Under the pieces are notes generated by a model that had not been told where the DNA came from, searched no databases, and saw nothing but the letters and a program-made list of their open reading frames with translations. Position numbers and translations under genes: made by a program. This document shows positions 24,286 through 24,859 of a DNA stretch of 64,000 nucleotides, one piece after another; position 1 is the first letter of the stretch; each line of letters starts with the position of its first letter. Where the stretch lies: the NCBI RefSeq assembly GCF_055900595.2, contig NZ_CM148325.1. One strand, written 5' to 3'.

Positions 24286-24346
24286 AATAAAATCTCAAAC
24301 GCCCCGTGTTGCGGAGTCAATAAAATGAAATAAAAGTTTATCGTTG

Positions 24347-24859
24347 TTAGCTGAGGCGTTGAGGGCCAGCACGGATACCTTGCGCCTGGCTTATCCAGAC
24401 GGGCGTGCTGAATTTTGCTTGCGGGGTAAAATGCGCATAATCAATGCGATAACCCTTTTCAGACGGCGTGCCTTCCTGGGTCAACAGCGCGCTGAGCGTA
24501 TCCAGTAATGCAAGATGTTGCGCCTGAAGAGGCAAAGATTCTTCAGCAACGGGCAGCGTTTGCGGTGCCATTGCGAAGGAAAGATGACGGATTACCGTGC
24601 GAATGGCATGTTGATGCCAGTAATCAACGGAATAGTTCGAATTCGGGCGGCGCGTGTTCGCTTCCAGCAAGGCCAATTGACCAAAGTTAACTTTGGCTGA
24701 AGGCTCGTGGTTGCGGGTTGTCGCTTTTGCGGGCGCGTTTGGTTCGGCTGCGTTGCTGAGCGCAGGCAAACCTAAACTCGCCGCGACCATCCCTAATAAG
24801 AGATGCGGCCAGAAGTAGCGTTTACCAAACTGTCGCCAGCGCGTCAGTATTCCACTCAC
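24347..24859 (-). CDS. secM: secretion monitor SecM (ribosome-arrest leader peptide regulating secA)
   Basis: Track ORF 24347..25012 trimmed to GTG at 24857-24859 giving (M)[34 protein letters not shown] signal peptide, 170 aa; C-terminal arrest motif [17 protein letters not shown] at 24362-24412. Confidence 0.85.

Follow-up and report, generated by a model that had tools for sequence, protein, structure and literature searches.

The DNA analysed here, a window of 64,000 nt from contig NZ_CM148325.1 (assembly GCF_055900595.2), carries on its minus strand the genes lpxC (25090-26007), secM and secA (21580-24285) in that order, with an intergenic region of 230 nt between the first two and a short spacer between the last two (Table 1). 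This is the lpxC-secM-secA region of Escherichia coli: several RefSeq chromosomes of this species are 100% identical to a 951-nt query spanning the region, and 5424 of the 5426 complete E. coli genomes were matched. In the identical genome NZ_CP098223, the gene that PGAP annotates as ‘secA translation cis-regulator SecM’ (WP_000014320.1) maps to 24859-24347 of the window. The element is already known from textbooks and is correctly annotated in RefSeq.

Table 1. Features of the lpxC-secM-secA region, in window coordinates
Feature	Position	Strand	Basis
Intrinsic terminator of lpxC: hairpin 25063-25020, U9 tract 25019-25011	25011..25063	-	Direct folding
In-frame upstream extension of secM, 51 codons, noncoding lpxC-secM intergenic DNA	24860..25012	-	Open length, indels, periodicity
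Shine-Dalgarno-like GGGATGG, G-rich, 7 nt 5' of the GTG	24867..24873	-	Direct reading; counterparts in other genera
secM coding sequence, 170 codons and TAA	24347..24859	-	Open reading frame; identical ends in RefSeq; Pfam and NCBIfam matches
GTG initiation codon of secM	24857..24859	-	Conservation of the homologous codon; onset of codon periodicity
Signal peptide, residues 1-37	24749..24859	-	Read from sequence; boundary from PMC6993859
Arrest motif F150-P166	24362..24412	-	Pattern match; identical K-12 motif
Helix 5' arm CUCAACGCCUC, secM codons 166-169	24353..24363	-	MFE/centroid fold; inside the stall footprint
TAA stop codon of secM	24349-24347	-	Read from sequence
secM-secA spacer, 61 nt	24286..24346	-	Sequence and ORF list
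Local hairpin CUCCG-CAACA-CGGGG	24302..24316	-	Fold with footprint truncated; comparative
Helix 3' arm GGGGCG-UUUGAG	24294..24305	-	Fold; contains the secA SD
secA ATG start codon	24283..24285	-	901-aa SecA reading frame 21580-24285; RefSeq annotation

The product of secM matches Pfam PF06558 (4e-58, 195.9 bits against a cut-off of 25) and the NCBIfam equivalog model NF002799 (7e-69, 231.2 bits against a cut-off of 100). Apart from these family matches, it has further features of a SecM of the long type, namely a C-terminal arrest motif, an N-terminal Sec-type signal, a place on the same strand directly 5' of secA and, in the MFE and centroid folds, a secA Shine-Dalgarno (SD) sequence that pairs with the last codons of secM. 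The signal peptide has a long basic N-region (R7, R9, K13, and R14), an uncharged hydrophobic core of 15 residues (L20-L34), and an S-N-A sequence. Its boundary was taken from the SecM(delta 1-37) construct, which places cleavage after residue 37 (PMC6993859). For comparative work a single genome from each species was searched with the arrest motif pattern, which gave 86 loci, all but one of them in Enterobacteriaceae. The Glaciimonas locus (L075) among them was set aside as a chance match, as the information content of the pattern predicts. Counts of start codons were limited to the 75 loci whose fetched DNA includes the N-terminus.

An earlier note on this DNA had placed the start of secM at the GTG and quoted a signal peptide beginning there, and both claims agree with our results: the quoted string occurs verbatim in the translated SecM, the annotations of RefSeq/PGAP and of K-12 both start the gene at this GTG, and among the 75 loci the corresponding codon is GTG 73 times and TTG twice (L073 and L077). 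Codon periodicity begins at the same point. Column entropy at codon positions 1, 2, and 3 is 0.19, 0.12, and 0.67 in secM codons 2-24, compared with 1.69, 1.75, and 1.65 in the same frame upstream, so that the excess of variation at third positions starts with the GTG itself and is not seen before it. Differences from the window within codons 2-24 comprise 383 synonymous and 161 nonsynonymous changes. The NF002799 alignment begins at residue 3 of the GTG-started SecM, and the SecM nascent chains in the PDB comprise residues 1-165 with the N-terminus MSGILT. A G-rich, SD-like element (GGTGG, GGCGG, GATGG or AGGT) lies 7-12 nt 5' of the start in all genera, and entropy is low at positions -9/-10 while the surrounding upstream DNA is unconserved. 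A supplement of TetRP initiation profiling has no entry for secM, and secM appears in a figure of a Ribo-RET study (bioRxiv 10.1101/520783). The GTG start is supported over an upstream extension by every line of evidence that we obtained.

The longest open reading frame at this locus is larger than the gene, encoding 221 aa. The earlier note had it begin 153 nt upstream of the GTG, at an ATG at 25010-25012; the position is right, and the codon there is in fact TTG; the whole in-frame extension (24860-25012) is free of ATG codons. An N-terminally extended SecM could in principle be translated from this TTG (25012-25010) or from an in-frame GTG at 24934-24932, as 56 codons in a row before the secM GTG are free of stops in this strain and, from a reading of the alignment, in K-12 as well. 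Against this, the TTG lies inside the U-tract of the lpxC terminator, its two T being the end of the U9 tract and its G the next base. A stop codon directly precedes the secM start in 17 of the 75 loci, where the open stretch is therefore 0 codons, and elsewhere it ranges from 4 to 81 codons and encodes unrelated ‘peptides’. Within Escherichia itself the upstream frame is shifted by 1-nt indels, as in the GTDB representative of E. coli (L012) and in E. albertii (L004), both of which have a 1-nt deletion. The upstream DNA also shows neither codon periodicity nor amino acid conservation and falls outside both family models. We regard an extended SecM as already refuted by this comparison of sequences, with a probability that is close to nil, and the 51 codons are intergenic DNA that is open by chance in this strain.

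The terminator within which the TTG lies folds at -30.3 kcal/mol (z = -5.2), and none of 200 shuffles was as stable. It was revealed by direct folding and had been missed by the consensus terminator scan. An A-tract upstream of the hairpin pairs with part of the U9 tract. Neither the consensus promoter/terminator scan nor inspection of the intergenic region by eye for sigma-70 elements gave a secM promoter between this terminator and the GTG.

A start downstream of the GTG can be considered as well. Initiation at the ATG of Met24 (24790-24788) would give SecM a short, conventional signal peptide, and ATG is the commonest start codon. The Pfam PF06558 alignment begins at residue 24, and the K-12 record NP_414639 stands at version 2. 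Sarker, Rudd & Oliver 2000, known to us through citing papers, reportedly bears the phrase ‘revised translation start site’ in its title, which implies a different earlier start; judging from that title, the start used before 2000 may have been Met24. The Pfam model, in which only Met24 onward is aligned, was perhaps built on an older, shorter start. Opposed to this reading is the conservation of the residues that it would discard. Residues 2-24 are 66-100% conserved across genera, and because residues 2-23 are conserved at this level with substitutions concentrated at third codon positions, they must be translated. Furthermore, the NCBIfam model and the PDB chains include residues well before Met24 (from 3 and from 1, respectively), and a start at Met24 would deprive the N-region of the signal peptide of all its basic residues. 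Since codon periodicity sets in at the GTG, the ATG of Met24 is excluded along with the upstream codons, and we consider initiation there to be extremely improbable.

From the GTG, then, the reading frame runs to an arrest motif of the form FxxxxWIxxxxGIRAGP, which occupies residues 150-166 and is followed by four more codons and the stop. The Gly165 codon lies at 24367-24365 and the Pro166 codon (CCU) at 24364-24362, corresponding to the P and A sites of the stalled ribosome, respectively. A degenerate, back-translated form of the pattern matches once in the window and not at all in 100 dinucleotide shuffles. The motif is strictly conserved in more than 80 species and lies directly 5' of the helix described below. 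In published work the stalled state has Gly165 in the P site and Pro166 in the A site (PMC10951299), and ribosome profiling has recorded a strong pause at the point where Pro166 occupies the A site; counted from the first base of the codon in that site, the 3' edge of a ribosome lies 12 nt downstream (PMC8848927). Cryo-EM entries exist for the K-12 motif (PDB 8QOA and 9VVI). Because neither the motif nor anything that precedes it differs from K-12, stalling, release, and in vivo regulation should transfer to this allele, and we infer from the identity of the motif that it would pause at Gly165/Pro166 and be released by export.

Folding of the junction (24420-24260) gave the same long-range helix in the MFE and the centroid structures, in which CUCAACGCCUC (24363-24353) pairs with GGGGCG-UUUGAG (24305-24294). 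The 3' arm includes the SD core of secA, GAG at 24296-24294, 8 nt before the AUG. The earlier note had given the position of the arrest motif with its Pro codon at 24362-24364 and a spacer of 61 nt, had called for a fold to look for SD sequestration, and had described the arrangement as one in which stalling unmasks the ribosome-binding site (RBS) of secA. Retranslation returned the motif at exactly these coordinates, the spacer runs from 24346 to 24286 with the secA ATG at 24285, and the fold pairs secM codons 166-169 over the SD. The unmasking itself is the published model (PMC10987492, PMC6993859, PMC4737659), which is reproduced by our folding and opening energies.

The spacer is 55-68 nt long in 82 of 83 loci. 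The one sequence (L061:673-908) with a spacer of 182 nt is titled Citrobacter freundii M-21 and encodes a SecM that is Atlantibacter-like; an insertion of about 120 nt with the core CTTACTGAAGTAAGT, possibly an ERIC-like repeat, sits in the loop that joins the helix arms, both of which are intact. Among 79 sequences the GAGA of secA and its distance from the AUG are invariant or nearly so. Two Citrobacter loci (L049 and L076) have a 3-nt TTA duplication that brings the SD-AUG spacing to 11 nt instead of 8.

Across 79 species 90.8% of the cells of the sequestering helix are paired, compared with 30-53% when the partner is slid, and covariation in the same 79 species was not above that of shuffles. 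The lack of covariation is accounted for by other constraints, which keep both arms almost unchanged, one as the coding tail of secM and the other as the SD. As far as these alignments can tell, the comparative support for the helix is one of conservation and not of compensation. RNAalifold did not recover the long-range helix from the 79-sequence junction alignment because the middle of the spacer is unalignable, and the helix was then specified explicitly.

[quoted passage not shown] We measured the effect of this on secA as an opening cost, the free energy needed to open its RBS from SD-3 to AUG+5. In the window this cost is 6.48 kcal/mol in the free mRNA, 3.06 kcal/mol with the footprint removed, and 2.97 kcal/mol with the 5' arm shuffled. 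Of 82 species, 71 likewise have a higher cost in the free mRNA than with the footprint, and the median difference is 2.46 kcal/mol. Most of the 11 species without the effect in this simple model belong to Cedecea or to a group with PLRLS or PFRLG tails, and among the 11 the occlusion of the SD may be weaker or differently drawn; loci at which the cost in the free mRNA was not higher include L014, L031, L048, L086, L007, L028, L041, and L021. The unpaired probability of the SD is nearly unchanged between the two states in the window (0.24 to 0.29) because the SD moves into a weak AU-rich hairpin. When the helix is removed, the SD segment UUUGAG pairs with secA codons 3-5 (AUCAAA) in this hairpin, at 24270-24299 of the minus strand. 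The unpaired probability is therefore a poor discriminator, and the opening energy was used in its place. A footprint model in which mRNA 5' of the ribosome could pair across to the SD was discarded as physically implausible.

Removal of the 5' arm also brings out in the fold a small local hairpin directly 5' of the secA SD. This hairpin covaries across Enterobacteriaceae, being present in 63 of 66 distinct sequences, where C-G, U-A, G-C, A-U, and G-U pairs replace one another in a compensatory manner at the same stem positions, and its mean MFE is -6.2 kcal/mol compared with -3.4 kcal/mol for shuffles. The local hairpin and the sequestering helix are mutually exclusive because the GGGG is common to both. 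It is tempting to view the hairpin as a conserved ‘anti-sequestor’ that makes the junction a true two-state RNA switch, not merely a stem melted by the ribosome, a reading that we hold only tentatively and consider rather doubtful. Rfam has no family for the junction region, and a search of the accessible literature gave no description of a ‘helix I/helix II’ pair. The local hairpin may equally be among the helices that were reportedly described already by McNicholas et al. 1997. This covarying hairpin next to the SD, which is incompatible with the sequestering helix, is all that is even slightly fresh at the locus.

Taken in order, the mechanism would begin with translation of secM from the GTG at 24859 into a secreted protein of 170 residues with a long basic signal peptide. 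With Gly165 in the P site and Pro166 in the A site, the nascent arrest segment would block formation of the peptide bond, and the ribosome would pause over secM codons 166-169, which are otherwise predicted to pair with GGGGCG-UUUGAG and to hide the secA SD. Occupation of the 5' arm would allow the local hairpin to form and would leave the secA RBS cheap to open, so that SecA would be made. Export by SecA/SecYEG would then pull on the nascent chain and release the pause, closing a feedback loop. The stall, the release by pulling, and the regulation in vivo come from the literature (PMC10987492, PMC6993859, PMC4737659); the present analysis supplies the ends of the gene, the motif, the helix with its computed energetic effect and, by comparison across loci, the start codon.

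It could also be proposed that the main switch for secA is translational coupling of the ordinary kind, in which any ribosome that completes secM briefly melts the helix and the SD is exposed without need of the arrest peptide. The 5' arm lies within the last four sense codons of secM, so each terminating ribosome must unwind the helix, and the conservation of both arms without covariation is compatible with such a role. This proposal does not account for an arrest motif that is strictly conserved right before the helix in so many species, nor for the near exact coincidence of the paused footprint with the 5' arm, and it is at odds with the strong profiling pause at Pro166 (PMC8848927) and with published genetics that link secA induction to prolonged arrest (PMC10987492, PMC6993859). 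We therefore find coupling of this kind very unlikely as the main switch. The locus is almost certainly the canonical secM-secA translational control unit of E. coli, with SecM started at the GTG at 24859 and with a stall that exposes the secA SD.

That an arrest peptide monitors secretion and controls secA was established in 2000-2002, and recent SecM structures reach a resolution of 2.0 Å. Nothing in the window changes this picture. The value of the analysis is that of a quality check: simply taking the longest ORF lengthens secM by 51 codons and carries it into the lpxC terminator, and the sequence alone suffices to find the correct GTG start.

The closest known system is SecM of E. coli K-12 (MG1655; b0097, NP_414639.2), the ‘secretion monitor’ and cis-regulator of secA translation, which occupies the same locus as a 513-nt gene with a GTG start. 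The arrest motif is identical in the two strains, and the 61-nt spacer and the SD-sequestering helix are the same. The proteins are identical at 169 of 170 residues and differ by T170S, beyond the stall site, with Ser (AGC, 24350-24352) in the window and Thr (ACC) in K-12; the genes differ further by eight synonymous changes. Since Ser is the commonest last residue of SecM across genera, and the tail reads QRLS in 64 of 83 loci, Thr170 of K-12 is the rarer state. In the local hairpin, one G-to-A change converts CAACGCGGGG of K-12 into CAACACGGGG in the window, and a 6-bp stem with a 3-nt loop becomes a 5-bp stem with a 5-nt loop. More distant are the short-type SecM (Pfam SecM_small PF10818, NCBIfam NF038363) and the Mannheimia-type SecM, which have the same role and the same place upstream of secA but only a weak likeness to the window SecM in the signal peptide region. 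The window SecM scores below the cut-offs of these families (20.9 against 26.1 bits and 25.9 against 45 bits) and is of the long type. VemP, MifM, and ApdA/ApdP/ApcA likewise combine an N-terminal localisation signal and a C-terminal arrest peptide with a downstream SD held in a stem-loop (PMC10987492). These proteins share the logic of SecM, but their sequences are unrelated to it, their target genes (secDF2, yidC2) are different, and they have no bearing on the family to which the window SecM belongs.
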